From Dudresnaya verticillata (Eukaryota): a stretch of 64,000 nt of DNA. The first letter of the stretch is position 1, and each line of letters begins with the position of its first letter. The notes beneath the pieces are model-generated. The model did not search any database, was not told the DNA's origin, and saw nothing but the letters and a program-made list of their open reading frames with translations. The stretch lies in assembly GCA_977862235.1 (NCBI GenBank), contig OZ374564.1, positions 1,116,001-1,180,000 of the forward strand, read 5' to 3'. A program made the position numbers and the translations under genes. Of the stretch, positions 1,011-61,240 are shown one piece after another.

Positions 1011-1511
1011 CTAACCCAACACGTCACTCACCGTAACGGACAATTGGAATGCTAGTGTGTGGGAACGTACAATGTTTATCGCAAGCTAAGGTCGAGGCAT
1101 ATTTCAAAACCGTTAAGGAGATCGTCGAACTGTAACTCTAAGAGTCACGGCGACGCCGCTTCGGAGCAGGGGCAACGGTATCTTCCTCGTTGCCCCCTGA
1201 CCCGTTCGAAAGCCGGGTTCCCCACTCTGATCCGATTAGAATGCACGCTGCGTATTGTCTTCCAAGACGCGAATCACACTATCCATACGCCGACGCTGAC
1301 GACGGACTACTGCGCGGAGATGAATCACCTTCTCCATTAGTCCCTCCGCTAAGGTTGGCGCCTCCTGAACGGATCCTGGCAATGGGAAGCGCTGTGTACG
1401 GCAAATGCCCCGTAGCACCTGTAGCCTGCTTTCCGTAGCGGCTAAGTGAGCCGGAACTGTAACGGTGGGATCCTCATCTTCCTGAAACTCTACCTTCGGG
1501 GATATAAACGG

Positions 1512-2213
1512 CTAATCCCTAACCCCGGCTTCGATTGAGCGCTCCGTTGAGGAAACCACCAATACGGATGGTCCCGACTCGGGTGAAGGTACTTCCTTCC
1601 GCGGAGGTGGGTTTGTGTCCTTCTCTGGAGAGGCTATATCGCTTTTCCGTAACAGTTCAGGACTTGACGCGGGAGCCGAAGGCTTGTCACCAATTACCCC
1701 GGCACTTGGGCGTTTTGGAGCCACTTCCGGTACGGTGATAGGTGCCTCACTCACCACTGGTGTGGGAGTGGGTGCCAACAGCGGAGCACTTGTCGGGGGC
1801 AGTTCGGCGGCTGCAGGCATTTGCGTCGCAGGAGACAGTGCTGCCGGCACAGTAACCGGCGGTGCTTCCGAAACGGTCTGCCCCTTCGAAGCCCCTTTCT
1901 TGGATGGTGCCGCAGGCTTAGGCACCGCAACAATAGGCTCAACCACGTCTATGGGTTTTGGGGTCTTAACCAACACGGGAGTAGTAGTCTCACGATCCAC
2001 ATCGCGCGACGTAAATGTAGCGACCACCGGAAGGACTGGAGCGGCTGTTTTCTCGATATTCGCTGCCATCGGTGCGACGGGCATGACCTCCTCCTGTTCT
2101 TCCAAGAAGGGGCCAGCTTCTTGCTGCCTCACCGTAACGGAATCGCTCGGGTCGATTGCACGCGAACGCCCCGCTGTCTCCTGACAACTCCCCCAATATT
2201 CGGCCCCATCCAA
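1512..2213 (-). CDS. Pro/Ala/Ser/Thr-rich low-complexity tail, probably the frameshifted continuation of the E1 antisense ORF
   Basis: Same strand and directly downstream of 2253-3629. E3 has the same layout (15401-16726). Confidence 0.55.
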   Translation of the reverse strand: MDGAEYWGSCQETAGRSRAIDPSDSVTVRQQEAGPFLEEQEEVMPVAPMAANIEKTAAPVLPVVATFTSRDVDRETTTPVLVKTPKPIDVVEPIVAVPKPAAPSKKGASKGQTVSEAPPVTVPAALSPATQMPAAAELPPTSAPLLAPTPTPVVSEAPITVPEVAPKRPSAGVIGDKPSAPASSPELLRKSDIASPEKDTNPPPRKEVPSPESGPSVLVVSSTERSIEAGVRD

Positions 2214-2252
2214 ACCGTCACGGTACGCATCCCTTGATGCTTGGCGAGGCGC

Positions 2253-3629
2253 TTAACCCCGATGGGGCTGCACCTCTAAGGCGAACCATTCCGGACGCGG
2301 ATATTCTCGATGAAGGAAATATGGCTCACCCACTCCGGGCCTAAGCGGGGGCACCGATAGGACACGGTCCTCATCCCAACTATACCCCAAGAAGCCCGGA
2401 GTGCGTTGCCAATCCTGCTGTCCGTGTACGGATAAAAGACACTCAACCCGATGAAGAGGATACGCCGACCCCGTCACCAAATCGGTTACGCCGACTTGGC
2501 GAATTAGGGCGATCACCGTCACGGGAAGTTGAAAAATACGGCCACAGTCTCCTCCGCGTAGGTCAGCTTCGTCACGCTGGAAGCAGTGCCAGTCGGATAA
2601 CTTGGTATTGCACCGCACTCCGTAGTAGGCAACCTGGAGCCACGAAAATAGCACCAGCATTGCCCACTCCGATCTGAAGATGCTCCAAAGCACGTCGAGT
2701 TGATCTTGGATCGGGGGACGCTCTCCGTTCGGATGTTCGTGATTCCACTCCCGCTCCGGGAGCAGGTTCGCAGAGAAGTACGCCACCACAGAAGGCGTGG
2801 GCACGGATAACCAACGAGTTACCTCGTATCTATCCCACCACGACGGAGCTGTGAGGTAGAGCTCACGTCGCATCTGATACGGAAGGTGGAAGAACTCCTT
2901 GGTATTCCACAGTTGCAAGATGGGTGCCCCCATATGCATTCCGTCTCGATAACGCGTCCGCAATCGGTGTTCCGTCGCCGCGTCGTCTTTCCACCCGTCG
3001 GCATAGCGGAACCAATACACCGACTGGTCATGCGGTGGGTCGAAGCAGATAAACTGCACCCCGATCGGTGCACCCCGTAGACGGAACGCCTTGGCCAACA
3101 AACGGCTCACCTTCGCGGTATACACAACTTCTCCGTGGCCGTGGCAACGGTACCACAACAAATCCGAAACGGTAGTGGTGCGTTCCTGGCAGTAGCTGTG
3201 CACCCATCGGCTTTGCCACACAAACGCCCGCCGGTTCGGCACGAAACCAATTCGCTGGTTTGCCTTGAAGGGCTGCTCCGAAACGGCTTGGTATCGTCGC
3301 GCTTCCAAAACGGTTGGGTAACCCTCGATGAAGTATGACACTGTCATCGGTGGTGTCACCTTCGCCCGTTCCGAATCGGATCTCGTCGGGCGCCCCGCAC
3401 GGTGCTCAAAATGGTGCCCCGGCCAGTATCCGCTCGGGACAGGACCCTCACCGGTACGGGTACGCGCCATCGGCATCCAAGAGCCTGTCGTAGGCGTCAT
3501 GCTCCACACTGGCACGCGCGACCGTTTCGGAGTGCTGCCTGACGCATATGGGCTCGCGCCCATGTTCCGCATCGGAGTTGAGACTAGGATCGATGGCGTC
3601 CGTAACGGAATCGATGGTAGGTCCGCCAA
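2253..3629 (-). CDS. Antisense ORF of E1, unknown Trp/Pro-rich domain (458 aa); probable true start is the ATG at 3978 via a frameshift near 3670
   Basis: Long open frame opposite to pol, between integrase and PPT. Motifs align with ORFs 14613-15488 and 48696-49595. Confidence 0.7.
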   Translation of the reverse strand: MADLPSIPLRTPSILVSTPMRNMGASPYASGSTPKRSRVPVWSMTPTTGSWMPMARTRTGEGPVPSGYWPGHHFEHRAGRPTRSDSERAKVTPPMTVSYFIEGYPTVLEARRYQAVSEQPFKANQRIGFVPNRRAFVWQSRWVHSYCQERTTTVSDLLWYRCHGHGEVVYTAKVSRLLAKAFRLRGAPIGVQFICFDPPHDQSVYWFRYADGWKDDAATEHRLRTRYRDGMHMGAPILQLWNTKEFFHLPYQMRRELYLTAPSWWDRYEVTRWLSVPTPSVVAYFSANLLPEREWNHEHPNGERPPIQDQLDVLWSIFRSEWAMLVLFSWLQVAYYGVRCNTKLSDWHCFQRDEADLRGGDCGRIFQLPVTVIALIRQVGVTDLVTGSAYPLHRVECLLSVHGQQDWQRTPGFLGYSWDEDRVLSVPPLRPGVGEPYFLHREYPRPEWFALEVQPHRG

Positions 3630-4298
3630 GTTGAGCTCCTCAGCACCACGTCGGACCTCCTCGTCATCATCCTTGGTCGAATCTTCTCCGTGACGGTGGG
3701 TCGCCGCATTCCCTAACTGGGTGTTCCTTGCGGCTGGGCCAGCAGCAAACGGATTCGGATCGTAGACAGACCAGCCGCGGCCCGCCGAGAGTATCTGTGA
3801 CGGTTACGCTGCGGTAACGCCCGTGCGACCACTCGTCGTGCGTGGTACCACAACCGCCGAGGACGAGGCCTGCGCTTGAGTCGAAGCATCTGTAACCGTA
3901 GGCGCACCTGGCGCTCTCGTCGTCTAGCTCGCGCGGGAACGCCGTTTCGGTTGAAGGCTTGCTCTTCTCCCCTGCCATCTTGGAAGCGGGCGCACGAAGG
4001 AGAAGGAAAAGTTGAGGAAGATAGCCGTATCGGTTGTGTGTGGGTGTGGAAGCAAAGGTAATCCGTGACGGTGGGCGCCCGAAGACGTGGCGCCATCTTA
4101 AGGAGGGGGGTCTGTGGTGAAGTGAGCCGTAGCGCGCATGCCGCACGCCGACGGCGAGCCAACCGTAACGGCTGATGTGGCAATACGTCACGCTGACGAT
4201 ATGGCAACGTGTAGCCGTGTCGGATGTGTGTGCGTATGTATTGCTGTACGCTGGTACGCATTGCTGTACAGCAGTGTAGCGCACCAACCATACCGGAG

Positions 4299-4306
4299 TA
4301 TTTATA
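4299..4306 (-). promoter_or_regulatory. Candidate TATA box for the E1 antisense gene
   Basis: TATAAATA on the minus strand, in a locally AT-rich patch about 320 bp upstream of the ATG at 3978. Confidence 0.35.
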
Positions 4307-5134
4307 GTATTTATTCCTTATTTTTAGTGAGTCTGTGTACAGTGTGTAGAGTAGCGCGCCAGCCAATGAGAATGCTGCGCATCTCCGTGTCGGAGATTGG
4401 GACCAGCAGGGCCGATTCCGCCATAGGACCAGACCAGTAGGGTCTGGCCCCCACGGACCGGACCGCTCGGTACCACCCTGACTTGTATATCAGCGCGACA
4501 CCGCAGCGGCTCCTAAGGTAAACGGTAAAGCAACCTTAGCCCAATCCTTTACGGTTTTCCCCGCGCCAAGCCCGTTGCGGTCTACCACCACCACCGTTAC
4601 GGATTCCATTCCGGCACTTGTACCACCCCCTTGTCTGTTGCTTCCCAATATCCGTCTCGGTTAGCCGCTCGCTGTTCTCCCGTTTCGGTGCGAACTGCTC
4701 TACCACCCCGTGGAGGTAGTGTTGCTCTCGTCCGTTAAGGAAAGTCAGGCCAGCTGTCCGTCTCGGCGTTCGTGGGTTTTCACTACACCACACGTTCGGT
4801 GCGCCGACGCCGGGAAGCAGACACACGTTGAACTACATCGCGGTGCACTTCCTCGAGCGCCTCCTGAAGCCTAGAAACTTCAAGAGGCTGTTTAGCACGC
4901 ACCTCACCAAGCGTTGACAGTTCCGTATGCTTCTCTAGCGGCAAAGCTGTAATACAGTGAAGGGCTTACAGAAGTGGGCCCTCTGCCCTCGTGTATGCGC
5001 TGAAATATCGTTACCTATAGGGCGCCAACAGGGACAAGACGGGTAGTCTCTGAATGGTCCAAGTGTCACCCTGTAGGTCAGTAGCTTAGTATCTGTCGAT
5101 TTAGTTTAGAAATTATAGCTTAGGATAGGGGGAG

Positions 5135-13074: not shown

Positions 13075-13997
13075 TGTGGTGCAAACGTCCTGGACGAAAC
13101 ACCGCCGAGCAGATCGGGGCTCGGTGGGTAACGACGCCCGTGGCGGTGAATGACCTCGCCTAGGGCGGCTTGTGGTAGAGCGGTTGACACGCCTTGGGCG
13201 GACTGTAAACGCCCGAGACGGAAAGGAAGAACAAAAGAGAACGAAAGGGGAACAAGTCAACGACGGTGGTTGATCGTGGAAGCACGGGAGGTAGACGCTT
13301 CGGCCGTAGACAGCGGTAGCGGGGGGTACGCGCGTGCGGAACGGGGAAGTCTGGACCAAGCCCGGCTTTCCGGGAGTTTACCTCAACGTCTGGGACGGAT
13401 CAACGAAGTATAGAACTACTTAGCGGCGGCGACGCGTGCGTACGCGCCGCGCGGGAACTCGGGACACGTGTTGTCCCGAGGCGCATCTGACAGATCCGTC
13501 GGTCATGTAGCCGCGCTCCTGACAGATCACGCGTAGCTTCCCCGCTTGAGTCCTTACACATACACGTGGGTGTACTTCCTTACAGCCACACGCGCCTCAT
13601 GGTGCGTGCGATCTCGATCCGCACTAATCCCGATCCAATCCCGATTCGGGCCAGCCATGCGGATGCGCCAAGCTTACAGGCGCGTGCCTTACACCTCTTA
13701 ATCTCGATGTCTGATCCCGATGTGGCATTCCGATTGGATCCGGATCCGGGCCACACTTACAGCGAACGTTCCCGCCACTGCGCCATGCGCGCACGCGTGG
13801 CGCCGTACAGTGTTCCGGGTTCGGGCGTGCGGTCTGCAGGCCAAACGAGCCGTTCTGGCCCGGGTGGTCAGAGGCATGCGTCGGTGACGTGTTTGCGCCG
13901 CGGGCGGGTTGTGCGCGCGGTGGGCGGTCGCCCGTCGGTAGACGCGGAATATCAACCCGCTTGAAAGCGAAAAAGGGGAATCCCCTCTGGCACTACA
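13075..13997 (-). repeat. 3' LTR of E3
   Basis: TGTGGTGC...GCACTACA inverted termini, adjacent PPT, homologous to the LTR starting at 25328. Confidence 0.85.
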
Positions 13998-14612
13998 CGA
14001 CCCCCTCCGAAAACACAAACACGTCAACTTGCTTCAGCCCGCCTGCCTTCCTGCGTCCGCGCCGGTCGTCTGGGTCATCCGCGCCTTCTCGTTTGCACTT
14101 GCCCGCCCTTGGCGTTGTTTGAGCCCCGTCGAAGACGCACGTTCAGCTTCCCCCGCCTTTGGCGTAGGAACGTTTCCCGTCCAAGACGTACAGTTGCCTA
14201 ACTTCGCCAGTGGCGTGCGTGAAACCCTGTCTGTGACGTCGTATCTGTGCACGCGTTCGTGCACCTACCGCCTAGGGGTGGCTTTGAGTTCCGCCTTCGG
14301 CGTTGTTTGGTCCAACGTCGTTGACGTGTGTTTGTTTGTTTCCGCCTTTGGCGTAATTCACTCAACTTCGGAGTCAAGACCGTCGTTGACGTATCGTGCG
14401 AACTCCGCCAGCGGCGTGTGATTGTTGAGCGTCTCAGACGTAATTGCACAATTCAACGGCCTGCAAGTGGCTGCGCCTTCGGCGGCGCCGGTGTATCCGT
14501 CACCATTCGACTTTGTCTGGAGGATTCCCGCAACGATGCGCGCTTATTCTCGCGGACCCCCTGATTCAACCAGCAGGCCCTGCGGCACGAGGATCTCATC
14601 ATCCATTACGCT

Positions 14613-15488
14613 GTGAGCGGATGTTTGCCAGGGGAGTTACCCCTGACCGTCGTGTGGACGAACGAGTGGCGCCATCGGTGCGCCATTACGAGAGGCTGGC
14701 TGCGTATTACAGCCGGTCAGATGCGTGCAGATGCGCATGCGCGTTTCGTCGTGGACGTATATCGGCGGTTTACCCGCTATCCGGGGTCGGTATTGACGCC
14801 AGCCGTCTTTGAGTTTGACGCAGGGCAGTACCGCACCAGTGGTGCGGTTGGGAATGGAGACCGTTTTGGGACGTTGTCACTGAGCCATGTGGCTGTTTCG
14901 ACTGAGCCGTGGGTGCTTCAGGAGGCTAACCTCCTTGGTGTACGCTTGAAAGCGGATTTCCGATACCTCCATAGGACGGGCACCTTCTATTGGGAGCGCT
15001 GCGTCCGTTGGGAGTGCGAAACGCGCCGCCGCAAAGGTGTTTTCGTTCCGTATCAAGATACGGAAGTTGATCGCATTGAGCGGGAAAAGTTGCCGCACTG
15101 CTTCATCCGTGTCCCGCCGCTGTGGTGGGACTTTGAAGTCTGCGAGGGCTTTGCGGTTGATTTGCCTCCGTGTGTCATGTATATTGGCTCCGAGGTGCGG
15201 ACGGATCCGTACTCCCGATGTTGGATCGCATTCTTCACCGAGTGGGTCATCAATTTGACCTACGCCTGGATGTGGGAGGTGAATGACACCTTCCGTCTCT
15301 TTTACGTGCGACCACGCGTGATCAGCCTCCTTGGCGCGCTCGACTTGGCCGAAGTGCTGGTGGTGCCAAGAATTGCCAAGCGTTCTGGGATCTACGCCAT
15401 GTGGCGGATAACGTCAACTGGGACGATCCGGCTGTTGTGCCGCCGAGAAACAGACGCCGTAAGGCAAACCGTCCGCGTTACGCGATGA
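14613..15488 (+). CDS. Antisense ORF of E3, conserved domain part; frameshifts near 15360 into ORF 15401-16726
   Basis: VPPLWWDFEV...VDLPPCVMY...FTEWVINLTYAW...RLFYV aligns with the E1 antisense ORF. Confidence 0.7.
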   Translation: MSGCLPGELPLTVVWTNEWRHRCAITRGWLRITAGQMRADAHARFVVDVYRRFTRYPGSVLTPAVFEFDAGQYRTSGAVGNGDRFGTLSLSHVAVSTEPWVLQEANLLGVRLKADFRYLHRTGTFYWERCVRWECETRRRKGVFVPYQDTEVDRIEREKLPHCFIRVPPLWWDFEVCEGFAVDLPPCVMYIGSEVRTDPYSRCWIAFFTEWVINLTYAWMWEVNDTFRLFYVRPRVISLLGALDLAEVLVVPRIAKRSGIYAMWRITSTGTIRLLCRRETDAVRQTVRVTR

Positions 15489-16726
15489 GTAGAAACCATT
15501 CCGCCTGTGGCGATTGGGTGAGGTACAACCCGGGGACCAAACGTCTTACGACGGAGAACATCGCTGAGAGCCATCGTCGTACGGACCGCTTCACGCCAGC
15601 GAACCACCCACGCGGGTTGCGCAAGAATTACGACTTCGCGGGTGATTTCCCGCCGCACTTGAGCGCCATGATGGCGGAGGAGGATGCGTTCCACGCTAAC
15701 AGCGGACCGGTTAACCCATCTGGGACGGAGGTAATTATGCCTATGGCGGTTGAGTCTACTGCGGGGGCAATAGCCCCTGCGACAACTTCGCCAGCGGCGG
15801 TAGGACCGGCGGTTGTTGTGCCTGTTGGCTTGCCGTCGGTTGCGCCGTTGGATCTCTCGGCGCCCGTCAATGACGGTGATGGTGATGCCATCATGGCTGC
15901 GCCAGTGGCGAATTCTGCGTCTGCAGTTACGACTCAAGGCGGAGTGTCTAACGTCGCTGACGGTGCGCATCGCACTCCTGCAGGGGCCGAATGGACTGAG
16001 GAGCAGCGCCGCACGGTGCTCGCATTCTTACGGGCCACCGGTGTCGTCACTGACGGAGCGAGCGGAACATCGACGACGCCACTTGGGCACTCGCTCCTGG
16101 CTGCTCTGCAGCCCAGCGTTGCCGTGGTGCCGGCGTCGACTATCGTTGCAACTGTGCCGTCTAATGACGAAGTGGCGAAAAAGCCGGTGTCGCCTAAGGT
16201 GGGTTGTTCGGGTTCGTCCGCCATTGCGTCTACCGACGTTGTTAAAAAACATCCGCCAAAGGCGAGTGCGATGAAAGCGCCTACGGCGGGTCCGCAGGCT
16301 CCAGTAGCCTCTTCGTCCGTGACGGATGTTGACCGTTCAATGCCTTTGGCGGTTAATGGGGTCCCGTCACCGGAGGTGCCGGGGCCGTCGACTTCGCCCA
16401 AGGCGGTTGAGGATGCTCCACCTCCAAAGGCGAGCGAGCTTCCTTGTGTAGCGCCTAAGGCGGATAATGATTCTAACTCTGCGCCTGTGGCGGTTGACAA
16501 AGAGTCGTCGCCTAAGGCTTGGGGTGAGCCAAGCTCGTCGCCAGCGGCGGATGTCGCGACTTCGACAGCGGTGGTTGTGGCGGGCCCCTTGCGGTCTGTC
16601 CCTGCACCTACTGCGAGCGCACCGTTGGTGACGGAAGACGACCTCTACGAAGAGGCGTTAAGAGAATCCGCCAATGGCATCGGGGATGATGCCCCATCTG
16701 AGCCGTCTGCGACGAAAAAGCCGTAG
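15401..16726 (+). CDS. Antisense ORF of E3, C-terminal part with Pro/Ala/Ser-rich tail (441 aa)
   Basis: Long open frame containing the DWVRYNP motif followed by a low-complexity tail, as in E1. Confidence 0.6.
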   Translation: MADNVNWDDPAVVPPRNRRRKANRPRYAMSRNHSACGDWVRYNPGTKRLTTENIAESHRRTDRFTPANHPRGLRKNYDFAGDFPPHLSAMMAEEDAFHANSGPVNPSGTEVIMPMAVESTAGAIAPATTSPAAVGPAVVVPVGLPSVAPLDLSAPVNDGDGDAIMAAPVANSASAVTTQGGVSNVADGAHRTPAGAEWTEEQRRTVLAFLRATGVVTDGASGTSTTPLGHSLLAALQPSVAVVPASTIVATVPSNDEVAKKPVSPKVGCSGSSAIASTDVVKKHPPKASAMKAPTAGPQAPVASSSVTDVDRSMPLAVNGVPSPEVPGPSTSPKAVEDAPPPKASELPCVAPKADNDSNSAPVAVDKESSPKAWGEPSSSPAADVATSTAVVVAGPLRSVPAPTASAPLVTEDDLYEEALRESANGIGDDAPSEPSATKKP

Positions 16727-17938
16727 CGTTGTCGGATCGTTAAGAACGGTTAACAAACGCGAGAGCTCGTGTGGTGTCGCTTTGCCTGCCCCGAAGCGGG
16801 GTGGCCAGCGAGGGATGCATACGTCATAGACGGTTAGTGCGGCGTCTCGTGACGTAGGTCGTAGTGAGAAGTTATACGGGCACGGGGGTTACCCCCGCTT
16901 GTGAAGCCCGAATAGACTTGACCGTTGTTAAACGTAGTTACTTATAGTCCCACTTGGTGTAGAGCGCTCCGATAGCGAGAAGTGTGTAGCCGACGGGTCT
17001 CGTTTGTTTCGTTGTAGTTGTTTCGGTTCGCTGTAGTAGCGCTTGCATAAATGCTCGGGGCGGTGTCGCCTTGGCGACGTACTCCTTCTTGTTGCCGCTA
17101 CAGTAGCGTAGGCCCATTTTGGGGGAGCCCATGCTCTTCAGCCGACTTAGTCGTTTTGTTCACATCGTCATTCCGCTTGTTAAGCGAGTATGTAGTTAGG
17201 GAGCCGTTTTTCGGTTGGCTTTTCGTCTTTGAAGTAGGAAATGTTGGGTTGGCGTCGGCGGCCCTTAGCTTAGCGTTGCCCCGTGCGTTGGACGCGTCTC
17301 CTGCGACTCCTGGGCACGGTTGCCACGCCCAGTGGCGGAGTCATTTTTGCGACTAGCGCGTCGTGCACGAACAGTAGCCTAACTCCGTCTTCGACGACTG
17401 GTTCTTCTCTCGTGTTTGCCGGCGACCCCTTTTGCGATTTGAAACACGTCGTTGATGTCTACGGGCGTTGTCCTTGGAGCGCTTGCATGTGCCGCCAGCA
17501 AGGGTAGCGAGTTTCAGACTTGACCGTGGGCGTGGGAGACGGTCTGTCGCTTCCTTGCTTGCGTTTGCCTCGTGGGCGCTCGTAGTGCCGGGGCACACAC
17601 TTTTCAGATCCTCGTTTGTTGGGCGCCGCCTGGCTGGCCGTGCCTTCGCGTTATTGTTTTCACATTAAAAGGTTCCATTTCGTGTGTTGCTTGGTTTCGT
17701 GTGGTGCGTGCGCCCTCCACGCTTTCTGACTACTGTCAGCCGTCCTGTCCTTACGGACCCCCTCCGAAGAGGGTTGCCTATTCGCGTGTCGCCAACCCAA
17801 CCGTCCTTGACGCGGTGGATTACAGCACCCCGTCTTCCGTAACGAGTGCACCTCCGCGTCAACCCGTATGAGGATGTGGCGTGTACTTTCGCCGAATTAG
17901 ACCGCCCCGTTCGCTTTCAGCGTCCACCCTGACTAGGG

Positions 17939-20900
17939 TTACCCGCACTGCGCGTCGTCGATGTTTGGCGGCAGACGCGTGTGCTTCTGGCGGTGATATC
18001 GCACGACGTGTGATCGCGGTAGACTGGAGACTGGTTCCCAGGTATTAGCTGAGGCGGGGTATCCAAACCACTTGACGCGGTAGAGTATCTCACCGTCTTC
18101 CGCGTGTGCGTGCGACTCAACCCGTTCGATAACGTACTCCTTCTCGCTTGCAGCGGTCGACGTGGACTCCTGCCGTTTTAACGCCTTGGGCGGTTCACTT
18201 TGCTGCGTGATGGGCGTCTGCACCGGTTCTGCGAACCGTACTCGACGAGTCGATCGCCTAAGGCGCTGGGCCGGTGCCCGAGCGCTTCCGTAGCGGATTG
18301 TGGTTCGTCGCTTTTGCGTACTGGTTCCTCGCTGCCAGCGTTGTCCTTTGGATTAGCGCGGCCTTCCTCATCGACATTCGATGCGCTCGGAGCGGGACCT
18401 ACATTGGTAGCCGGCGATGCCGAGGTTGCGTGTCCCATTCGCGTACGGATGCCTGGACCCTCCTCATCGTTGGAGACGGATTGCGGGACTCCTTCATCAG
18501 GGTTGGCGGCGACGGGCGAGATCTCTACCAACCCACGACTTCGCGGCGTTGCATTAATTCGCTCCTGCGAGTCTTCCGCGCTTCGCGGTGTCCCTGTGCC
18601 TCCGACCAGGTCCGCCTGTGGCGTGTCTGGGGTTCCTGCTCCTTCGTCTGTTGACGTGGGGGCAGTGGGCCCCGGTACTTCAGGTGGTCCCGGTGGTTGC
18701 ACGGTTGCGGGGGCGACGTGCCCTAGTGGGGTTGGCGCCCATACCACGTGGTCCCGGGATAAACGCTAGCGTTCTCCACGTCCCTTGTCGACGGTGACCG
18801 TCTCTTCATTGACGTGAGTTACCCGATATGGTCCATCCGCCACAGGCGCGAGCTTGTGCTTCCTCTCGGCGCGATCGGTGCTCCCGCCACGGGCGAAGTA
18901 TTACTTTCGCACGAATGCGAAGTCACCCACAGCGATGTTCTCCTTCGATTTCCTCAGGCGAGTATCGAAGTTCCGTTTGTAACGCGCCTGCATTTTCTCG
19001 GGCGACATTTTAGCGGTTCCCATCAATTCTGCAACCCAGGTGCACCACTTGGTGTAGTACTGGTCAGCGGTGGGCACGCTTTCAAGCGACGGTTCCGCTT
19101 CCAGCGACAATGGCAGCGGGGGCTTGGATAGTACCAGTTCGAACGGAGCGAGGTGTGTAGACGAATGCAGTTGCGTATTGTACGCGAACTTCAAAACCTC
19201 GGTAAAAAAATCCCAGGCGTGTGGGTGGTCTGCTACGTAGTGACACAGGGAGGCGAGGATGGTTCGATTGAATCGTTCCACCTGGCCGTTACACTGTGGA
19301 TGATATTAGTGGTGAAGAGATTCTCCTCTCCTTGGATGCGGCAGACTTCCTGGAACAACTTGGCTACAAATTGCTGCCCATTGTCGGACAGCAGCTTCTT
19401 GGGTGGGCCATACACAAACACCCAGTGTCGAACAAACGCCTTAGCGATTTCCAATGCCGTAATCTTACGTAAGGGAACCGTCCGGACCAGCTTCGAGAAG
19501 CGGTCCGCGATGCCGAGTAGGAACTTATATGCCGAGTAGGAACTTATTCCCCCGCTTAGTGCGATGCGTTACCCGAGTATATCGATGGACACAAACTCGA
19601 GAGGCTCGGTGGCTGGGAACAGTTTCATCTCCTTCACGTTCTTTCGCATTAGTACCCGGTTCTTCGCGCAGGTAACGCAGTTTCGGACGGTCGCGTAACA
19701 ATCCACCGACATAGACGGCCAATAATACTCGCGTCGAAGCGTATGGTACAGCTTCCGCCCTCCGGGATGTCCTGCTAATTTAGCGTGATGCTGGAGGTGG
19801 ATCAATCGAACGCGTAACGCGGATGGTACAACGACTTGAGGTCGGGCCTCGACGGTCCGAACCAATAGTCCCTGTTCATCCGTTGCAAAGAGTAGGGCGT
19901 CTCCGTCTTCTAGACGTTCCCAGATCTCGGAACAGTACTGGTCATTGCCCTGGGCATGCAACAACTGTTCATGCGTCAATTGACGGAGGAGAACTTCATC
20001 CGCCGGTGGCGCGTTGGTAACCAACATCTCGTCAAACTCCTCGAACTCTCGTTCGGAGAAATCGACTTCGCCCTTGGCGCTTGACGTATCGCTTTCTCCG
20101 TGAGCGTAGCCGTCTTCTGACGAGTGATCCTCGTCTTTGACGCAACTTCCGTGGTAACACGGGATTTCATCGTCGATCGGTTCGACCGTTTCGCCGTTCG
20201 TCTGTATACGCGAGAGGGCATCTGCCTGAGTATTCAGGTATCCCTTTTTGTACTTCACGACAAAGTCGAATTCAGACAGACAAAGGCGCCATCTCATTAA
20301 CCGTCCCGAGAGGTCGCTGATTTCCATCAGGCTACGGCTACCTCAACGACGAATGGTCCGCATGAACTACGAGGCACTCCATCTGAAGGTACGGTCTCAA
20401 TTTTGTGATCGACCAAACCACTGCGAGGCATTCCTTTTCGGATACCGAGTAGTTGCGCTCCGGAGCGGTTAACGAGCGTGACCAGGAGCCAAGCGACTTC
20501 CGTTCACCGTCAGGCTGCGGTTGGAAGAGTGCACAGCCAACTCGGTATTCACTCGCGTCACTATCGACGTAGTGCGGTAGTCCCTGCTGCGGCGACACCA
20601 GGATGGGTGGGTGAGTCACCGCTTCGACAAGCGTGCTGAATTCCTGAGCTTGCTCCTCGGTGAACGGTTGTAACCGGAAGTCTTGCTCTTTCCTCAAAAC
20701 TTTGTTGAGGGGAGCGGCGACATGCGCGTATCGCGATAAAAGCCGTCTATTGACGTTGCACAATCCGAGAAAGCTCCGTAATTCCTTCTGGTCCCGCGGG
20801 TGCTTGGCTTCGCGTATCGCGGTGGTGACCGTACGGTCTACTTGCAATCGTCTCGGACGTATCACTTGGCCTAGATAGTTGACGGTCGGGGTGAAGAAGT

Positions 20901-22450
20901 CGCACTTGGTCAACTTCAATGTTACCCCGGCCCGATGCAAGGTCGAAAGGATCTCGTCAACGTGACGGAAGTGACTGTCCATGTCGTTAGAGAAGATGAT
21001 CACATCGTCAAGGTAGACGAGCATGAGCGCCACTTGTAACCAGCCAGTAAGATATCAAGGGTCCGTTGAAACGTAGCCGGCGCGTTAATAAGCCCGAAGG
21101 GCATACGCTTGTAGCGGAACAACCCGGCATGGCACGTGAACGCCGTCTTGTCGCGATCCCGCGGGTTGATGAGCACCTACCAGTAACCACTATTGCAGTG
21201 TAGGGTAGTGAAGACGTTTGCTTCCCCTAGACTTTCAATATATTCGTCGATTCGCGGAGAGGGTACGTGTCTACCGTCACCGCGTTCAAGCGACGGTAGT
21301 CGACGCAGAAGCGGAGTGTACCTTCCTTCTTGGGAGCAAAGACGACCGGCGACGCACATGGCGACTGTGCGGGTTCGATAACGCCCTGAAGCAGCATGCG
21401 ATCCACCTCCGCTTGGGCGAGTTGCCTTTGCTTTGGGCCAGCGCGATAGGGCAGGGATGAAATCGACCTGGAGCCGGGGAGCAAGTCAATATAGTGCTCC
21501 GTGGTTGCGATTTCTCCTAATGAACCGTCCCACATCGACGAGTACCTGCGAAGCATCTCCTTCAGCCATCCTTGATGTTCGGCTGAGAGATGACTCAGGT
21601 CCAACTCGTCCACTGACGGAGGTTTTTGCTACAGTTGCTTCGATCGACTTAGCGAATGTATCCGGCTGTGCCGTTACTCCATCATTATTTTGAAAACGGA
21701 AATCTTGATTCGCCTCTTCCTCCGTTGCCTGCTCCTCGGTGATACCTAGGACATCGGCCAGACTTATGTGACTGGGGAACACTGCTGTGGGATGTGGCAA
21801 CGCAGTAGCGATGACTTGTCCTTTGACGAGCGCCTGCGGACGCGGGGAAACGTTTGCGACGAGAATCCGGAACGCTCTCAGCGGCCCTACCGGAGCGACC
21901 CCGTTAGTAATGGCCAAAGCTTGCCGATCATATACCGTTCCAAACAGCGGGATGGTAATGACCCCTGCTCGTTCGGTCGTTACCGAGATCCAATTTTGCG
22001 CCTGTGTCGGGATGATCGTTCGTTTCGCAACGCGTATCTTGGGCGCCGTTTGCCCTCCGGCCGTGCCGTACTCTTGTTCCGTTGGCAACGGGGGTACGAC
22101 GGGGGCCGGCGCGGCGGGAGGCGCGTTATAGGGACGCGGGTCCCGTCGTCCAACTCAATCTCGCGACTCCGCGGATAAATGGCTTCGACAAAGCGGTCGC
22201 AAAAGTCGCAACCGAGTATAACCGGCGCAGCGAGTCGTTCGCAAACGATTAACTCCAACTTGACAGCCCTTCCTCCGATACATACGACTAATTACATGGT
22301 GCCTTCGGTTTGAAACGCCTTGTTATTGGCGTCTAATATTACAGGAAGACTCTTGGATACGATCCGTGGTCGCACTTCTATTGGAATGTCGTCAATACGA
22401 ATGAAATTCGGACCAGCCACGTGTCGATCACAGTACTTTTATGTTCCAAT
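17939..22450 (-). pseudogene. E3 pol (protease-RT-RNase H-integrase-chromodomain), multiple frameshifts
   Basis: VIDT/AGPNF near 22430; SPVVFAPKKEGTLRFCVDYRRLN; VYLDDV; ERNYSVSEKECLA; ERFNRTI; EYVIERVESH...YRVKWFGY...TWEP. Confidence 0.92.
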
Positions 22451-25400
22451 GTACTAACAGTTGCGCTCAAGTAGGCGTATACCTTTTAGTTACTTTTGGC
22501 CATTACGAACAAGTGTCCCCGTCCTCGCGGGGTTGGTACCTTCGCCAGGGGCGCTTTAACGACGCCTGTGACGAATATATCCGCCCTTTAGCGTGTTCAT
22601 TGACTAGCTTCGGGCCCTCCTTCGGTGTTAACACCCCAGACGGAGGTCTCTCGTTATGTTGTGACACTCCAGTGTCAGGATTCAGTACCATAGCTAGTTT
22701 TTCGCCTCTGGCGGTTGTTGCTGCGCTATGCAGGGATTGATCACTTTCGGGTGGCGTTCTGCCGCATGCGGCATTGGTCCGCCTCGTGGCGATTGTGGTC
22801 GTGCAGCACGGCGGATCGAGTCGTGAGTCGCGCGTTCCTTGACACGGGTGTCCGCGTCAGCTGGGACTGCGGCCTTCTCTGCGTCCGTTAGGCATTCATA
22901 GTTGGTAATCACATTCATGAAGTTGCTCATGCGGAGGAAGCAGTCTCGCGCGATGTGTCCGCGGGCGTAAAACTGGTGAGAGATTAGCTGTCGGTGCGCG
23001 TCTTGACGGAATGGACCCCGTTCCTGCCATCCTGGCCTTGCCTGGTGGACCTGTGGGGCATACCCCGAGTATGGAACACGTGGCGCGGGTACTACCGAAC
23101 GCCGAAAAGCGAGAGAGGGATACAGGTCTTGCTCATCTTCGTCCTCGACGTAATTGTACATTGGCAATGCGGAGGTCGGGACCGAAGCCTGCTCATCGGC
23201 TAAGTATAGATCGCCATCGGCGTATGTTTTTATGTCATCGTGTCGATGACTAGCGAAACTCGGCAGAAGACGCCGCTATCATAGCGCGCGCTGTTGACCT
23301 TGCGCATTCCGTCAGTTGAAGGAGTGCCGTTCGGGTAACGCCCACGGCGGATCGTGGGACACTGGCGTCTTGGGCTAGTACTATAATGTCCCATCGGGTT
23401 GACGCCGAGCTGGAATTGCCACGTCGTTCTCGGTTGGCGTCCCCTTCGTCCTACGTGAAGTAGAATAGCCTCCCGAACGACAATTCCGCCCTCGGCGTTT
23501 CTTCGTGGAAGCGAGCCAAGAGAGACATTATCGTTGGGTCGAGCCCGTCGATGTATAAGGTCATCTTTCCCAATCAGGTCATACGTTACCGCAATGAATG
23601 CACGCTCCGGCTAACCGTACCCCATAGGCCATTTCTTCCACGCCTTGCCTTTGCGGTGTCGAGCGGATTGAATGAATAGCAGTTGCGTACGTAAGAAGGC
23701 TGTACTATAACGCCTCCGGATACGAAGATACTCCACGACAGTGGCACGTTGACATCGACTTGACGGAGCGGAACTGCGTCGCCTCTGTACCTCGAAAGAA
23801 GTACGGTAGCGCGCCGCACGCCTGCGCCTCTCTCATCTCGAGCGTGTCGGCCTCATGCGCAAATCGCGTTAAGAACTCGAGGACAAAAACTGGGTCGTGT
23901 CCATTGAAGGCATCGTTCTGCAACGTTAACTCTAGACGCTTAATGTGGTCCTTGGCCTTGTCTGTCTCGCGTCTGGAGCGTGTCTGTCCCACTTCACTCA
24001 GACGATACGATCGGTATGACAGCAGTTGTTCGAGCAGGGGGTTGGAGGGGCATAGCTCCTTCAGCCATTTGTACGCTTTCCGCGAGATTCTACGGCATTG
24101 CCGTTGGTTGGCCGACCGACATCTTCAGACGATGGGTCCGATGCGTTTTCGTCACTTAACGTATGTGACGATGGAGATGACGAATCCCCAGGTCGATGAA
24201 GTTCCTTCTTCCGTCCTCGACGTGCCTTGCGGCCGCCTTGTTTCTTGCGATCCCTACGCCGACGGCGAAAGTCTTCATCTGAGCTATCTACTTCAGATGG
24301 TGGTCCATTGTGCCACTTGGCGGTTTCGAGTCGCTCGAAGGGGGCGGCTAAGCTGGAGAAACGCTCCCAGGTACTGCGGTCCGAGCGGATATGGGTTGAC
24401 CCGTACCCCGCTTCGTCAGTACATGGTCAAGGTCGGAGCGGAGCCCTTGAAGGCCCCGTCGCGATCTTCCTCCGAAGTCTGAAGACGGCTAAAGATTCCT
24501 CCGATACTGCCGTCTAGTATTTAGGCGACCCGAGCGAGCAGCGCATCGTCTTCAAGGACGAATACCTCTCGGATACGCGTGGTATCGTTAAGTTACTCAC
24601 GCGAACGGCGGTGGGTGACCCCGTTGGCGGTTGACGTGCGGGGGTTGATCTGTTGGCCGACCCCTCAGCGCTTCGACGTGGCGAATTCGGCTTAGCTGGC
24701 GAACAAACGGCACTGCCGTAGGGTGTGGGGCAACATGCCCCAGGTATTGGTGAATCGTCAACAATGTTGCGCTCCGCAGAGCGCCCTTGTTCGTCATTGA
24801 CGGGGATAGATGGTTGGTTTTCTGGACGTTCCGGTTATCTCACGACGGTCTCGGCTTGTCTTTCGTCTTCGGCGCGCTGTTGCTGGGCTTGTACTGTGTC
24901 AGCAGAGTTAACGTATGAGTGATAGGTGCGGAGGGCCGATCCCTCGGTGACTGAGGTACGGACGACAACAGGGATCCCTGTTGGTGGCGGAGGTAACTCT
25001 CCCTCGTTGTTCGAAGCGTGGGTGCCGTCGTGGTCGTGGCTCAGGGGTAACGTCGGGAAGGCCGACGCAATCTCTGTGCTCATGACCCGCCCATATCCTG
25101 TTTTCTTAGCTGGATACGACCGCTCCGACGCGGGGAGACTCGGCGTCGATGGTGGGCGTCTTGAACTGGGGCCTCTCGTAGTTGGCGGTCTGGAGGCCAT
25201 GATACAATCGTAGATCTGCTTGAACACCGTGGACGATTAGTGACACCATCAGATGATGGATTTTCTGACTTCGCACGACGGTAGAGCTCGTTGAAACATA
25301 ACGCTACTTCTAGGCCGGGATATCAGATGTAGTGCAAACGTCCTGGACGAAACACCGCCGAGGAGTTCGGGGCTCGGTGGGTAACGACGCCTTCGGCGGT

Positions 25401-25903
25401 GAGTAGCCACACCTTAGGCCGTAGTTGTAGAGCGATGGACGACGCCTTGGGCGGACTATTAACGACGTAGGCGGAAAGGAAAAACAAAAGAAGACAAAAT
25501 AAAACACGTCAACAACGGGGGCAGATCGTGGAAGCACGGAGAGGTAGCCGCATGAGCCTTGAGGCCAGCGGTTAGGTACGCGTGGCCCGGAAGGGCTAGT
25601 CTGTACCAAAGCCGGCTTGCTCTGGTTTACTCCAACGTTCTAGACGGGGTACCTATTTACCATTAGTAGCACGGATGCCGAGGGCGTCGCGCAAGAACTC
25701 AGGACACTTGTTGCGCTGTAGTGCGTCTAACAGATCTGCCGCGCGGTGCAGCGACGCATCCGACAGGCTTGTGCCACACGTCCTATACAGTTGCTTACAC
25801 ATACAAGTGGCCACGCGCCCCTTACAGGTGCGGGCGCGTGACAACGTGGGTGATCTCGATCCTAATCCGGATCCGCATCAGTATCACGAGTGCGCCGTTA
25901 TTA

Positions 25904-27975
25904 CAGCAATCCCTTGATTCAAGGAATGGCACGATGGAACAGAGGGGATTTCTTATAGCAAGTTGTTTCGTATTTGAGGAATCACCTTTATTTTCTGAAA
26001 TATGAGGAATCACCTTTATTTTCTGAAATATGACTTGTTTGGCCCATGCCTCGAACTTCTGCAAGTTTTAGCTCCAGTCGCAATGCACGTAATTGCGATA
26101 ACAACTAGGGATTCATGACCGGCTGCCTCTCGCATATGCCAATGACCTTGCCAACTGCATCAATCTTACCGGTTATTGGCATTGGCTCCTCTATAGGGTC
26201 AGCGGCAGTATCCGGGCTTTCCGTCTCTACATCCTCCAGATTATTCACTATCGTCTGTTCGAGGCCCTCGTCTCCAACTTCCTCCAAAATTTTGGTATCA
26301 TCCTCATTTAGCGAACTATTGATAGAAATGCGTCTGACAGTTCCCACAAGACATGAAACGACTGATTCTAACGCTTCAGTATCTTCTTCAGTTCGTCTTC
26401 TAAAATCAGCATCAGCCCCATTCCCAGCTGTTATTACCAGGCCGGTATACTTCCAGCAATTGCTTATCACATGGTGTGGAACCTCATTTCATATAGATTT
26501 ACACACTTCATGGCTGTGAGCTGGTCAATTTTGTATATGTTTCCAGAACTGTCGTCAACGTAGTCTATTGCCCTGTTTTCTTGTACGGTACGGTATTTGC
26601 GCTTCAGGGAAGCAATGATACCAGAATCCATCGGCTGTAACTTGGAAGTAGAGCTAGCAGGCAAAAGAACTATCCCAACAGACTCCAGCAGAGGCATGCA
26701 ACCATCCGACCCATGCCCAGAGAAAGTTTCCAGAAACAAAACCACCCTGCTTCCTGGTCTCTGCTGAATGTATTTGTCGAATCGCTTGAGCCATTCGAAA
26801 AATATCTGCAACGTCATCCACGCTTTCTTGTTGGAACTGTAGTCAAATCCTAGCTCTTTCCTTTCCCGAACGCTTTTGAAAACATCGTGGTACCTTTTCG
26901 TTCCCAAGGAATAGGAGGGGAACTTTTTGTGCCATCTGCGTTAGCGCAAACCAGCAAAGTAAGCCTACGCTTATCTTTGTTTCTTCCAGGTACAGCCGCA
27001 GTTGAAATTTTGCGATCCGGAGCCATTGCGTAGCTTAATCCCGTTTTGTCTGCATTCCAGATATCGGCGTGGTGGTAGTCATTGCATATCGATTGGAGCA
27101 ATAGTACTTGGGTTCTTATTGCGTCGGTATCAGCATCAACGCTCTCCCCATGCAGTTTCCTAGCCTCCAGGTTCCAATGATGTCGAAATTTCCACAGCCA
27201 ACCATTGGTAAACTTGAGTGATATCTCCCGCTTTCTGGGAAGTAAAGCGTTGACTTCAGAGAGCAGCCGTGTCGTGTTGACTCTGATCATGTCTCCATAT
27301 ATGAAGTTCCTAAGCTGGTTCTGATCATTAATCCAATGGACCAGACCAGCCTTGATGGCAGGTTGCGCCTGTGTTCTGGACCTTTTTGCATTATTTGGTG
27401 AGATGGGAGCTGCTAGTGATGATCTAGAGGAGAGCCTAGAATTTACCGGACGTAAAGGTGTGAAGGGAAGACGGAGGCTTTCCTGTGCCCACTCTGGAAG
27501 GTGCTGAAATCGGATCAACTCCGCGTTCTGTCTTGGTCGCCTGATTTCCTTTTGGATTTCAATGCGGTGTTTGTTGGTCAAGCATTTCCGCATCGTAATA
27601 ATGGAGAATGATGGTTGCATGTAAATTGAGCTTCACATTGCCACCGTTGTATATTACAGAGGTTTCTACAGAGATGTACAAAGCACGCTTCTATTATCAA
27701 GAGCATGACCCTTTGCATGTAAAGTGGGTACATTACGGGTACAACAGGTCACCTACGAAGAGGACCGTTTCTTGCTCAGTAATATGCTGTTCATAAAGGT
27801 ATTGAAACTTAAGGCTGTTCAGAACCGTTCCCGTTTGAGATTTCTTATAACGCGGAAGGAAGGAATGTACAATGGAAGTACTAATGAAGGTCACGAGTAT
27901 GGTGGACGGCAAAACGTTCCTTGTGTGCGTCAAGGGATTCCTTCCATGAGCGGTCCTTGAATCAAGGGATTACTG
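25904..27975 (-). mobile_element. pogo/Tigger-like Tc1/mariner DNA transposon (2072 bp)
   Basis: TIRs CAGCAATCCCTTGATTCAAGGA / TCCTTGAATCAAGGGATTACTG, TA target duplication on both sides. Confidence 0.93.
26105..27620 (-). pseudogene. pogo-family transposase (CENP-B-type HTH plus DDE), frameshifted
   Basis: KFTNGWLWKF, LHGES, IWNADKTGL, KKAWMT, LFLETFSGH and LQPMDSGII spread over three frames. Confidence 0.9.
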
Positions 27976-29974
27976 TACAGGCACAACGCATTACATCACC
28001 ATGGATCCTGATGCTCGATCTCGATCCCGGATCTAGATCCGATCTAGGTCCGGGCCGTCCATACAGACCCGTATCCTTACAGAATCGTTAATCCCAATGT
28101 CCATCCGGATCGCGTCATGGCTGGCATACGGCGCCTCGGAGTCCACTTGTACCGCTGTACAGTAGCGCTGCGTGCGCGCGTGAGCCGCAGAACGCGATTT
28201 ACGTACGCGGGTTAGCCGTCCATACGTCTACGACGTGTTCGCGCCTACGTTGGGTGAGCGCACCACTGGCGATATCATTGGTTGACGCTGTCGTTAAAAC
28301 CCGCTCAGAGCGAACAAAAGCCAGGTCCCCCTTTGCACCACAGGAAACACAACAAGCAACCGGCCTACGATGGTTCTTCCCCCTTGTTGTTTTGGGCTTC
28401 TTTCCCATTCTTTCGCCCTACGACTTTCCCTTATCCGTCTAGGCTCCCCTTTCCTTCCTTACCGTCGGTTTCGTGCCGCTCCACGACGGGGACGCTGGAA
28501 TCCGGCCGCTGCTGCCCGCGTACGGTCCACTCCGTGCGCGCTTCGGCTTCGACGCCGTAGATCGGCGACCGTCGACGGCATGCGCGGCCGACACCACCGC
28601 TCTTGAACTACAGCTACCACCACCCATGGACGGATCTGGGTGCGACTCCGAAAACAGCTAGCATAGACGCTCGGTTCCATCAGACGTCTATGCCACCGTT
28701 ACACGGGTACAGCGGGAGCGTCCGTTAGCGCTTACAGCGTATCATGCCATCATGGCATAAATCTCCATTGTGCAACAGCACGCCATCTGCAATGCGCTGC
28801 AGGTCATGAGCTGTGCACTTCATCACAATGGGCGTATATACAGCCTAGCCTACTAGCTAAAATGAGGGCTTTTTACCGAACCCTCGGAGTTTCAAATAAA
28901 AGTATCTAGATGGGAGCTCCAGGAACGGTTACTGTATATTAAAGGTAAGAACGTAGGTAGCTTCCCGCCCCAATTACGTCTACATCCACCGGCACCGCTG
29001 TAGAGCCGTCGCCCTTGCCGGTTAACTGTCCGCTCTGTGAATTACGTTCAGTAGCTTGCTTCCATTGCTTACATCTAGTCCGCTGGGTGGATCTGGCCCT
29101 GCTGGTCCCAGTCACTTTTGCGGACATGCTCGGCATTCTTATTGGCCGGCAATACACAACTTACTGAACAGAATAATTACAGTTACCTAATTAAAAATAA
29201 ATCAACTACTTGGTTCCGATTGGTGGGCGCCGCAGGTTCCAGAAAGGCATACAGTGCTACTGTGCCGCTGCACTCCGCTTCGGCTTTGGGCGTGAGCGCA
29301 CCGCTGCGCCGGTCGCGAGTTGGCTTAACCGTCGTCGGGACTCCCCAACGGCCACTTCACCACATACTCTACCACTGCTACCAGGTACCTTCTTGTCGGT
29401 CGAGACGGGGGGTCGATCCGGCGAAGTGGTTCTGTAGGGCCACAGTTGCGGACCGATGCGGTCCTTGTATGATAACCGGCCCGCTCCTGCGCTATCTGCT
29501 GCGCGGATGGGTCAATCGCACGCGAGGGCCGCGTCGTGTTGCGCTGAAGCGTTCGATGGCGCGTTTGCGGCGGCGGAGGTGGAGAAAATTTGTTTACTTT
29601 ACTGTGTTGGTGGTCTTACTTTGTGCCGGGTTCGTTCCGCTAGTTAGCTCTACGTTGTCTTAAGTAGGTCTAGGTAGTAGTAAAAGTATAACGCCTAGCG
29701 TAGCTAAAGTGGCCTAAACGTAACGCTAAACGCAGGTGCTACCCAAAAAAGGGCTCTAGTAGTACTAAAAAGGAAGGTTTTGTCTAAGCGAACTAGCCTA
29801 ATGCGGTGACCCCTTGGGTGGTCTGGCCCCACTAAATCAGGGTTTGGGCCCCATCCTGCTACCCAGGGGCGGCCGCGCAGCACTACAGCGGTGCTGTGTA
29901 CCTATCGCTTTTTGGGTGGACTAGTCCATTTGATCCACCTCACAAGAGGTCCAGAACTGGACAGACCGACACTG

Positions 29975-61120: not shown

Positions 61121-61240
61121 CTCTGAGTGGTTGGATAGCACGAGCGCAGGTCTCCCTTCTATGTACTTATCGTGGCCTGATCACTTCTTCCTTTTATTTC
61201 CGTCAGTAAAGGATTAGGATGCTACTTAAACACTGTGGAA

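Follow-up and report, generated by a model that had tools for sequence, protein, structure and literature searches.

The closest described system is that of the VANC proteins and their motifs in the Arabidopsis VANDAL (Mutator-like) transposons (PMC5735166; PMC13547354), and sequence-specific anti-silencing is established for that one group of plant DNA transposons. The function of antisense ORFs in LTR retrotransposons is an open question. Those of the plant Ty3/gypsy elements of the Retand (Tat) type, with their TRP28/PF04195 domain, lie between pol and the 3' LTR and are conserved in the lineage, and the account in PMC11963269 proposes their product as a DNA-binding regulator and places repeats nearby. 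A further point of comparison is offered by the multiple packaging signals that RNA viruses and HBV carry in dispersed form, which are, as far as PMC6281560 describes them, many small weak stem-loops over the whole genome, with a common loop motif and on strand-specific RNA.

In the window, i.e. the whole 64,000-nucleotide stretch of Dudresnaya verticillata DNA analysed here, the element carrying the palindromes (hereafter the carrier) is a Ty3/gypsy chromodomain LTR retrotransposon, with reverse transcriptase, RNase H and integrase in gypsy order, a C-terminal chromodomain (Pfam), LTRs with TG...CA termini and a polypurine tract. It resembles red-algal Ty3/gypsy chromodomain retrotransposons in domain order, chromodomain, LTRs and polypurine tract, and its closest named pol matches are from the red algae Chondrus crispus and Agarophyton chilense. 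Neither for its palindromes nor for its antisense-ORF family was a description found in the literature searched. The features of the carrier and of related sequence in the window are as follows.

13075..13997, minus strand: 3' LTR with TG...CA ends and 7 sites (3 CGTC and 4 CGCC)
13998..14008, minus strand: polypurine tract adjoining the 3' LTR, read from the sequence
14104..14490, no strand: densest site cluster, just upstream of the antisense ORF
14565..16726, plus strand: antisense extra ORF with one frameshift (E 2e-88 to the family profile)
17939..18352, minus strand: C-terminal chromodomain of the integrase (Pfam PF00385, E 1.7e-9)
18901..21628, minus strand: integrase, RNase H and reverse transcriptase, spread over several broken frames (Pfam PF17921, PF17917/PF17919, PF00078)
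21486..25236, minus strand: putative protease and gag region, placed by position, no Pfam match
25328..28342, minus strand: 5' LTR, interrupted by the pogo insert, aligned with the other LTR
25904..27975, minus strand: pogo/Tc1-like DNA transposon inside a TA, with terminal repeats (DDE_1, E 3e-27) and zero sites
13086..28235, no strand: CGTC-N3-GACG, 24 copies by pattern scan (the earlier 22 plus 16704 and 20849)
13135..28312, no strand: CGCC-N3-GGCG (35), CGCT-N3-AGCG (10) and CGGC-N3-GCCG (6), by pattern scan
1..4787, plus strand: second gypsy element, with its integrase end, an antisense ORF (1512-3803, minus strand) and an LTR (4113-4787)
52215..53300, plus strand: related solo-LTR-like stretch with a CGTC site at 52250 and two CGCC sites, found by sequence comparison

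The two LTRs of the carrier are 64% identical over 888 aligned nt and their flanks differ, so that it has neither the near-identical LTR pair nor the target-site duplication of a single insertion; the copy may be old or chimeric. Four palindromes stand at matching positions in both LTRs, two of them with altered spacers.

The original prediction had listed 22 copies of CGTC-N3-GACG, all at exact coordinates, and its spacer of three bases was confirmed over spacers of 0 to 10 (0, 0, 1, 24, 10, 3, 4, 2, 1, 2 and 0 copies in the carrier), with the second peak at 4. Restriction to this element family also held. The sole other copy in the window, at 52250, belongs to a related LTR-like stretch that shares 72% identity with the carrier's left LTR across 298 nt. 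By chance the window would hold few such sites (shuffle mean 1.37, largest 6; none of 100 shuffles reached 25). The CGCC class is commoner still (35 versus a Markov mean of about 1, maximum 5), and the CGCT and CGGC classes are likewise enriched, giving 75 sites of four classes in the 13,211 nt of the carrier versus 10 in the remaining 50,849 nt of the window. As the original prediction had noted, CGTC-N3-GACG is absent from E1 and from the pogo insert; the insert, which has no sites, serves as an internal negative control. All four classes have CG at both ends and favour the same flanks (T at -2, little G), and the sites are spread across coding and non-coding sequence. They reach 23 per kb in 13999-14564, and in the cluster at 14104..14490 palindromes of the CGCC and CGTC classes take turns at intervals of 23-27 nt, resembling a decayed unit of about 50 nt. 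An amino-acid or codon artefact was rejected by synonymous codon shuffling (pol/gag segments, 16 versus a mean of 1.5; antisense ORF, 17 versus 2.2), as was tandem duplication as the sole cause, since the spacers and flanks of the sites differ and TRF finds no array there.

The symmetry of the sites is strict. Free combining of the four half-sites would give about 66% hybrids, whereas mixed half-sites are at chance (8 versus 9.2) and the matrix of half-sites is filled on its diagonal only. Maximal 4-bp stems with a loop of 3 are in excess (93 versus 34), but 5-bp stems are not (9 versus 8.5); the fifth, outer pair is in fact avoided (complementary in 5 of 75 sites versus 21.4, P = 2e-6; in 0 of 35 in the CGCC class). 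G·U pairs show no excess on either strand (78/91, 113/123). Hybrids at chance, the lack of G·U enrichment and fifth-pair avoidance together disfavour a simple homodimer site and favour a hairpin of fixed size. Of the dimeric protein site originally proposed, the fixed length and free spacer sequence stand, but the plain homodimer does not. The spacers of the carrier are A/T-rich (0.56 versus 0.43, P = 1e-4). A stable-loop sequence was considered as an explanation in the carrier and rejected, as there is no loop consensus.

Related loci were taken as the best 80 of 593 matches of a pol scan over 4 of the 64 parts of the search set; many of these are close relatives of one another, and the numbers of loci are therefore not independent. 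Among them, an excess of 4-5 bp stems (z>=5) was found in 35 of 57 in-clade loci versus 0 of 22 outgroup loci. The stems of the hairpin-rich relatives are mostly of any sequence, with no 4-mer dominating in clades A-C and no need for CG, while loop size is lineage-specific. In clade A a pyrimidine is preferred at the loop-closing position, and 6-bp stems are hardly enriched. A protein reader of the sites, as originally suggested, is still the best guess, but relatives that keep the geometry with almost any stem sequence speak against a plain homodimer site. One 17-locus clade among the same best 80 matches lacks hairpins or any other strong motif, and 7 of its loci have the antisense ORF, meaning that ORF and hairpins are not tied.

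The antisense ORF of the carrier encodes a globular domain of about 390 aa, of an unannotated family, and a disordered tail whose region holds 14 sites. With 191 clusters at 50%, the family is of great diversity. Among the best 80 of 593 pol matches, 21 related loci have an ORF match, and in 19 of them the ORF follows pol on its downstream side. Its database relatives, of which Gracilariopsis chorda is the named one, are annotated only as hypothetical proteins. The predicted structure of the domain is a confident model with no match at E<=0.001 in the PDB and viral structures (Foldseek), a best Z of 2.8 in a VIA structure search, hence no functional hint, and a Z of 4.8 for two short helices at the C-terminus; the missing match does not in itself prove a new fold. 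Searches with the family gave a best E of 0.38 against PDB sequences and no usable match in the Atlas, and metagenome and viral contigs gave nothing by ORF-based scans, nor viral contigs by RT scan.

Palindrome excess in the window occurs in three places, i.e. positions 1-4787, the carrier and a DNA-transposon-like region at 33.8-52 kb, and is absent in E1, the pogo insert and 59-64 kb. All three have a gene of the ORF family, the last one weakly (hhalign probability 3.8%). The antisense ORF of the second gypsy element matches the same family profile as that of the carrier (E 1e-41), and this element has a palindrome of its own, CCG-N3-CGG (34 versus 4 expected, spacer usually W-N-W), which is sequence-specific and does not avoid a further pair.

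The best explanation, which we advance tentatively from the sequence patterns and at less than an even chance, is that the element marks itself much as in the VANC system, but with DNA micro-hairpins, which the protein of its antisense ORF would read. The 75 inverted repeats with four-base arms and three-base spacers would be family-specific marks, forming micro-hairpins in the DNA to which the protein of their own element binds, and this protein would work like a ruler on hairpin size. Folding is suggested because sites that are free in sequence yet strictly symmetric call for base pairing, DNA and not RNA because G·U is not in excess and both strands are used alike, and a ruler-like reader because an extra pair would let the junction slide, which could explain why the fifth pair is avoided. 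As with VANC, the purpose might be autoregulation, or to keep the host from silencing the element's copies. Besides the symmetry, exact size, absence of a G·U excess and A/T-rich spacers, this reading is supported by the spread of the stem excess through the lineage, the slower divergence of stems in clades A and B given below, the place of the ORF downstream of pol and the palindrome excess of the elements in the window that have an ORF-family gene. Against it stand the clade that has the ORF but no hairpins, the fold without functional hint, the weak ORF link of the DNA-transposon-like region and, as detailed below, the lack of slowing in clade C, the lack of an excess of compensatory changes and the RNA-like loops of clade A and sense-strand spacers of the carrier. 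Cruciform arms of four bases also lack stability in chromatin unless a protein holds them.

The main rival, possible but in our view rather unlikely, is that the sites are dispersed RNA packaging signals, small stem-loops in genomic RNA that the Gag of each family would recognise, so that it prefers its own RNA. Sites dispersed over coding and non-coding sequence, a lineage-specific hairpin geometry and a stem-length cap that suits an RNA needing translation and copying all agree with it. So does the sense bias of GNRA loops in clade A (37 versus 10.6 on the sense strand, 19 versus 11.1 on the antisense; 2.5-4.5 fold and 1-3 fold enriched, respectively), as does predicted RNA pairing at two loci (L021, L037), somewhat higher on the sense strand; the spacers of the carrier are also slightly A-rich on that strand (P = 0.02), which is RNA-like. 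However, G·U is not tolerated, median predicted pairing in the carrier is just 0.18 sense versus 0.16 antisense, and a loop motif on the packaged strand is lacking there, the GNRA bias being confined to clade A and the loop motifs of three other loci (L043, L034, L047) being strand-symmetric. Moreover, weak A/T stems in clade A show no less enrichment than G/C stems (2.6-4.1 fold whatever the GC level of the stem), and palindrome excess extends to the DNA-transposon-like region.

It is unlikely that the palindromes are plain duplex sites bound by several paralogues of the antisense protein, each acting as a homodimer with a half-site of its own, sites of present and earlier specificities having been kept. 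The diversity of the ORF family, the flank preference common to the four classes and the single sequence-specific palindrome of the neighbouring element would fit such a history, as would an alternating array that resembles the VANC motif arrays described in PMC5735166. CGCT and CGGC sites are mostly in constrained coding regions and CGCC and CGTC sites in fast-evolving ones (39:4 versus 20:12, P = 0.004), a relic-like pattern. Left unexplained are the avoidance of the fifth pair and the any-sequence stems of clades A-C.

Functionless by-products of mutation, e.g. of fold-back template switching during reverse transcription of the element, are improbable and already weakened as an explanation. 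Strict Watson-Crick symmetry, indifference to stem GC content and a whole clade without repeats are in their favour, as is turnover without compensation, double changes being complementary in 33 of 76 cases versus 19 of 59 in controls, which is no excess. But near-perfect stems are converted at the background rate (0.028-0.040 versus 0.023-0.036 in controls), and in clades A and B divergence is slower at ancestral stems than at the remaining positions, which is not so for control stems (clade B, non-CpG C/G, 0.027 versus 0.047, P = 1e-6); clade C, the third clade tested, shows no such slowing, and as the triples in the tests of stem divergence and gain overlap, P values are optimistic. Copying errors would also not be expected to produce the length cap and CG-anchoring, nor arms kept while spacers changed between LTRs of 64% identity.

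Co-opted sites of a dimeric host transcription factor that is sensitive to CpG methylation, for which the CG ends and a lean of one-mismatch variants to CpG transitions (17 versus 6.5 expected, hand-summed) would speak, are very improbable, given no hybrid half-sites above chance, a different palindrome in each family of the same window, no need for CG in relatives and no CpG hypermutability (12/191 versus 20/230 other C/G in one LTR pair of the window; 0.048 versus 0.047 in clade B relatives). The methylation sensitivity that the original prediction had deduced from the CpG finds no support in these rates, nor in the DNA methylation of G. chorda, which is biased to non-CG sites according to a review (PMC8566409).

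Returning to self-marking by DNA micro-hairpins, one might speculate further, although we find it doubtful in this wider form, that red-algal retrotransposons and a DNA transposon mark themselves by a shape code, in which hundreds of DNA micro-hairpins of lineage-specific size would be extruded from chromatin by a protein of new fold that the elements encode in common and that would shield the element against silencing. In that case an element would know its own kind by symmetry and length instead of by sequence. If their shape is read on DNA, the palindromes would represent a new way of self/non-self discrimination in chromatin; if they are read on RNA, a retrotransposon would have packaging signals of the dispersed kind. 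Their excess is statistically strong under either reading. The lineage combines a large family of antisense proteins, with a confident but unmatched fold, and a cis-code of clade-specific geometry, which makes cognate and non-cognate pairs directly testable.

With the packaging signals described in PMC6281560 the carrier shares the many small weak stem-loops over a whole genome, but its loops are free, G·U is not enriched and both strands are used almost alike. With Retand it shares the position and lineage conservation of the antisense ORF, the proposed DNA-binding role and the repeats nearby; unlike the carrier, Retand elements are without a chromodomain and confined to flowering plants, a hairpin code is not among the features described for them in PMC11963269, and PF04195 is found in 0 of 90 members of the carrier ORF family. 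From VANC, as described in the papers cited above, it departs in being a retrotransposon whose words are symmetric, of fixed geometry, sequence-free in relatives and also fill coding regions. No match of the ORF family to VANC/MAIN (plant mobile domain) was seen in sequence or fold (Pfam, PDB sequences, fold searches), binding and anti-silencing by the carrier protein are predictions, and not every element with the protein has the motif (the 7 loci above). The resemblance to VANC lies in (i) an accessory protein that the element itself encodes, which persists through the lineage and joins a conserved domain to a variable tail, (ii) short words, particular to each family, that have built up along the element and in part form tandem units, and (iii) fast divergence between families.

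The palindrome feature of the main element, a Ty3/gypsy chromodomain retrotransposon, is real, strong and broader than first reported. All 22 CGTC-N3-GACG start coordinates listed in the original prediction for 13086-28235 were exact on rescanning, and two more copies, at 16704 and 20849, bring the element to 24. The whole window holds 25, against a shuffle mean of 1.37; the sole outside copy, at 52250, lies in a related LTR-like stretch, and the claimed absence from the pogo insert and from E1, a different gypsy family, was borne out (zero in either). Across spacer lengths, the CGTC/GACG pair peaks at 3 (24 copies), and spacer 4 forms a shoulder (10). When every spaced pair of 4-mers was scanned, CGCC-N3-GGCG came first (35 vs 1.07 expected) and CGTC second, followed by CGCT-N3-AGCG (10) and then CGGC-N3-GCCG; order-3 and order-4 Markov simulations stayed at or below 5 for all four palindromes. 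Pooled, they number 75 in 13,211 nt of main element and 10 in the remaining 50,849 nt.

The carrier comprises, besides pol and gag:
13075-13997, minus strand, LTR
14565-16726, plus strand, antisense ORF between pol and the 3' LTR, with one frameshift
25328-28342, minus strand, other LTR, interrupted by a pogo-like element at 25904-27975

By Pfam, RT, RNase H, an integrase zinc finger and the chromodomain lie on the minus strand, and the named pol relatives come from Chondrus crispus and Agarophyton chilense, which makes a red-algal host likely for this DNA. The two LTRs are 64% identical, without target-site duplication at their flanks; four sites occupy equal positions in both, the spacer having changed in two. 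This LTR identity is low, though the internal sites are little decayed; possibly the copy is chimeric, derived from two subfamilies. Sites are densest in the stretch that separates the polypurine tract from the antisense ORF (23 per kb), where CGCC and CGTC sites alternate at 23-27 nt; the disordered tail of the ORF has 13 per kb, and pol and gag also carry sites, about 3-8 per kb. Codon shuffling of the coding parts yields 1.5 and 2.2 sites, compared with 16 and 17 observed.

The antisense ORF matches 191 protein clusters at E<=0.001, and among 10 looked up one is named (Gracilariopsis chorda hypothetical proteins). No Pfam family fits the 90 members searched, which gave 1 weak low-complexity match. 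A 397-residue domain of an intact relative, with numerous conserved Arg, Trp and Glu residues, has a confidently predicted fold (pLDDT 95.6, pTM 0.93) without structural match (best Z 2.8 among 48,161 chains; none with Foldseek). Linkage in other assemblies is hinted at by two pairs of pol and ORF-family proteins, P0171/P0017 and P0175/P0155, with equal-sized longest contigs (12899 and 11104).

Symmetry and size outweigh sequence in the sites. A 16x16 matrix of the inner dinucleotides shows a diagonal pattern, and half-site hybrids number 8 (9.2 by chance), whereas about 66% of sites should be hybrids if pairing were free. The two bases that flank the stem could pair in 5 of the 75 sites (21.4 expected), and in none of the 35 CGCC sites. 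At loop 3, maximal 4-bp stems are in excess (93 vs 34), but not 5-bp stems (9 vs 8.5); neither strand shows an enrichment of stems containing one G·U pair, and spacers are A/T-rich. The dimeric protein site originally proposed keeps its fixed spacer, but a single homodimer on duplex DNA would account for none of these features, whereas, we infer, a hairpin of fixed length would.

Among relatives, the geometry of the inverted repeats follows the pol tree. A pol scan (best 80 of 593 matches, 4 of 64 parts scanned) gave 79 related loci, of which 57 group with the main element in the RT/RNase H tree (support 0.96) and 22 fall outside. Among these best matches, inverted repeats (>=4 bp, loops 3-7, z>=5) are in excess in 35 of the 57 in-clade loci and in 0 of the 22 others. 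Of the in-clade loci, 21 gave a match to the ORF family, which in 19 of them runs antisense and lies downstream of pol; many of the remaining loci stop short of this region. Clades A and B and locus L043 have loops of 4 with stems of 4-5 bp; in clade C the loop is either 3, with 5-bp stems, or 5. Clade A stems take nearly any sequence, enrichment being 2.6-4.1 fold whatever the GC level; beside the loop C or T is preferred, and 6-bp stems are scarcely enriched. Stem sequence is also free in L034, L047 and L043, with symmetric loop cores (A-S-T in the first two, G-C in L043). In several long contigs the signal drops within the flanking sequence, and it persists after codon shuffling. A 17-locus clade showed no hairpin excess or other motif, although 7 of its loci bear the antisense ORF; L001, L004 and L036 are also low in hairpins.

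Within the window, an element at 1-4787 shares the layout of the main element and a homologous antisense ORF (E 1e-41), with CCG-N3-CGG 34 times (4 expected), one CGCC site and zero CGTC sites. A DNA-transposon-like region at 33800-52100, with possible terminal repeats at 33844/52077, contains broken minus-strand transposase frames (about 41300-44100) whose motifs we take to be CACTA/Plavaka-like; they had no Pfam match, and their Atlas look-alikes, unnamed fungal proteins and DUF6830, fell below the recognition threshold. This region has a palindrome excess (stems >=5, loops 0 or 2), even beyond its densest part, the non-coding 45500-48500, where 22 perfect palindromes with arms >=6 (12-24 nt long, about 1 expected) accompany a duplicated promoter-like unit at 47354/48031. 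A 361-aa ORF at 48510-49595 (plus strand) weakly resembles the antisense-ORF family (16.6 bits vs 6.1 for the best of 500 shuffles; hhalign probability 3.8%); a homologue search was without result. The E1-type family (5778-11000, 57400-57840, 59000-64000), whose LTRs have 90-nt repeats, has neither antisense ORF nor palindrome excess. Short non-coding repeated units common to 11372-12158 and 58507-58796 are possibly small non-autonomous elements, and the words TACAG/CTGTA are frequent in LTR-like stretches.

Dispersed RNA packaging signals, a concept set out in PMC6281560, would suit the sense bias of GNRA loops in clade A and the slightly A-rich sense loops of the main element. We consider them somewhat less likely than DNA hairpins, as G·U-containing stems are not enriched, flanks and loop cores are symmetric between strands, predicted RNA pairing in the main element is low (0.18 on the sense and 0.16 on the antisense strand, and about 0.6 under DNA parameters), and a palindrome excess also occurs in the DNA-transposon-like region holding the weak ORF relative. 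For these reasons DNA is modestly favoured over RNA as the level of action. Several paralogous homodimers, each reading its own duplex sites, seem to us slightly less likely again.

That the sites are a mutational by-product is improbable: one-mismatch stems turn perfect no faster than controls, and in clades A and B stems common to two copies diverge more slowly in a third copy than the remaining positions do (e.g. 0.027 vs 0.047). Selective retention is thereby favoured over mutational drive, in comparisons that overlap one another and also take in neutral decay following insertion. Slowed divergence was seen neither for shared stems of clade C nor for control stems with loops 9-12. Compensatory changes show no clear excess: the sites turn over collectively, as a population. 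CpG-methylation-sensitive binding, also suggested originally, is unsupported, as a window LTR pair and clade B show no CpG hypermutability; the one-mismatch variants are skewed towards CpG transitions (17 vs 6.5 expected), but C/G sites generally mutate more than A/T. According to a review (PMC8566409), methylation in G. chorda is about 8%, mostly non-CG and small-RNA associated, and Cyanidioschyzon has H3K27me3 on repeats. That the palindromes are sites for a host factor is very improbable.

Our preferred reading, possible though short of probable, is that the palindromes fold as DNA micro-hairpins marking the element as self, and that the antisense-ORF protein, their putative reader, would work like VANC, the anti-silencing proteins of Arabidopsis VANDAL transposons. 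The literature searched, which included few subscription papers, gave no account of these repeats or of the antisense-ORF family. VANC proteins and their motifs are described in PMC5735166 and PMC13547354, and Retand antisense ORFs in PMC11963269. The likeness to VANC lies in the proposed way of working, an analogy drawn without assigning the protein to the VANC family, just as the antisense ORF of the main element is set beside TRP28 (PF04195), the antisense-ORF family of plant Retand elements, without being assigned to it.
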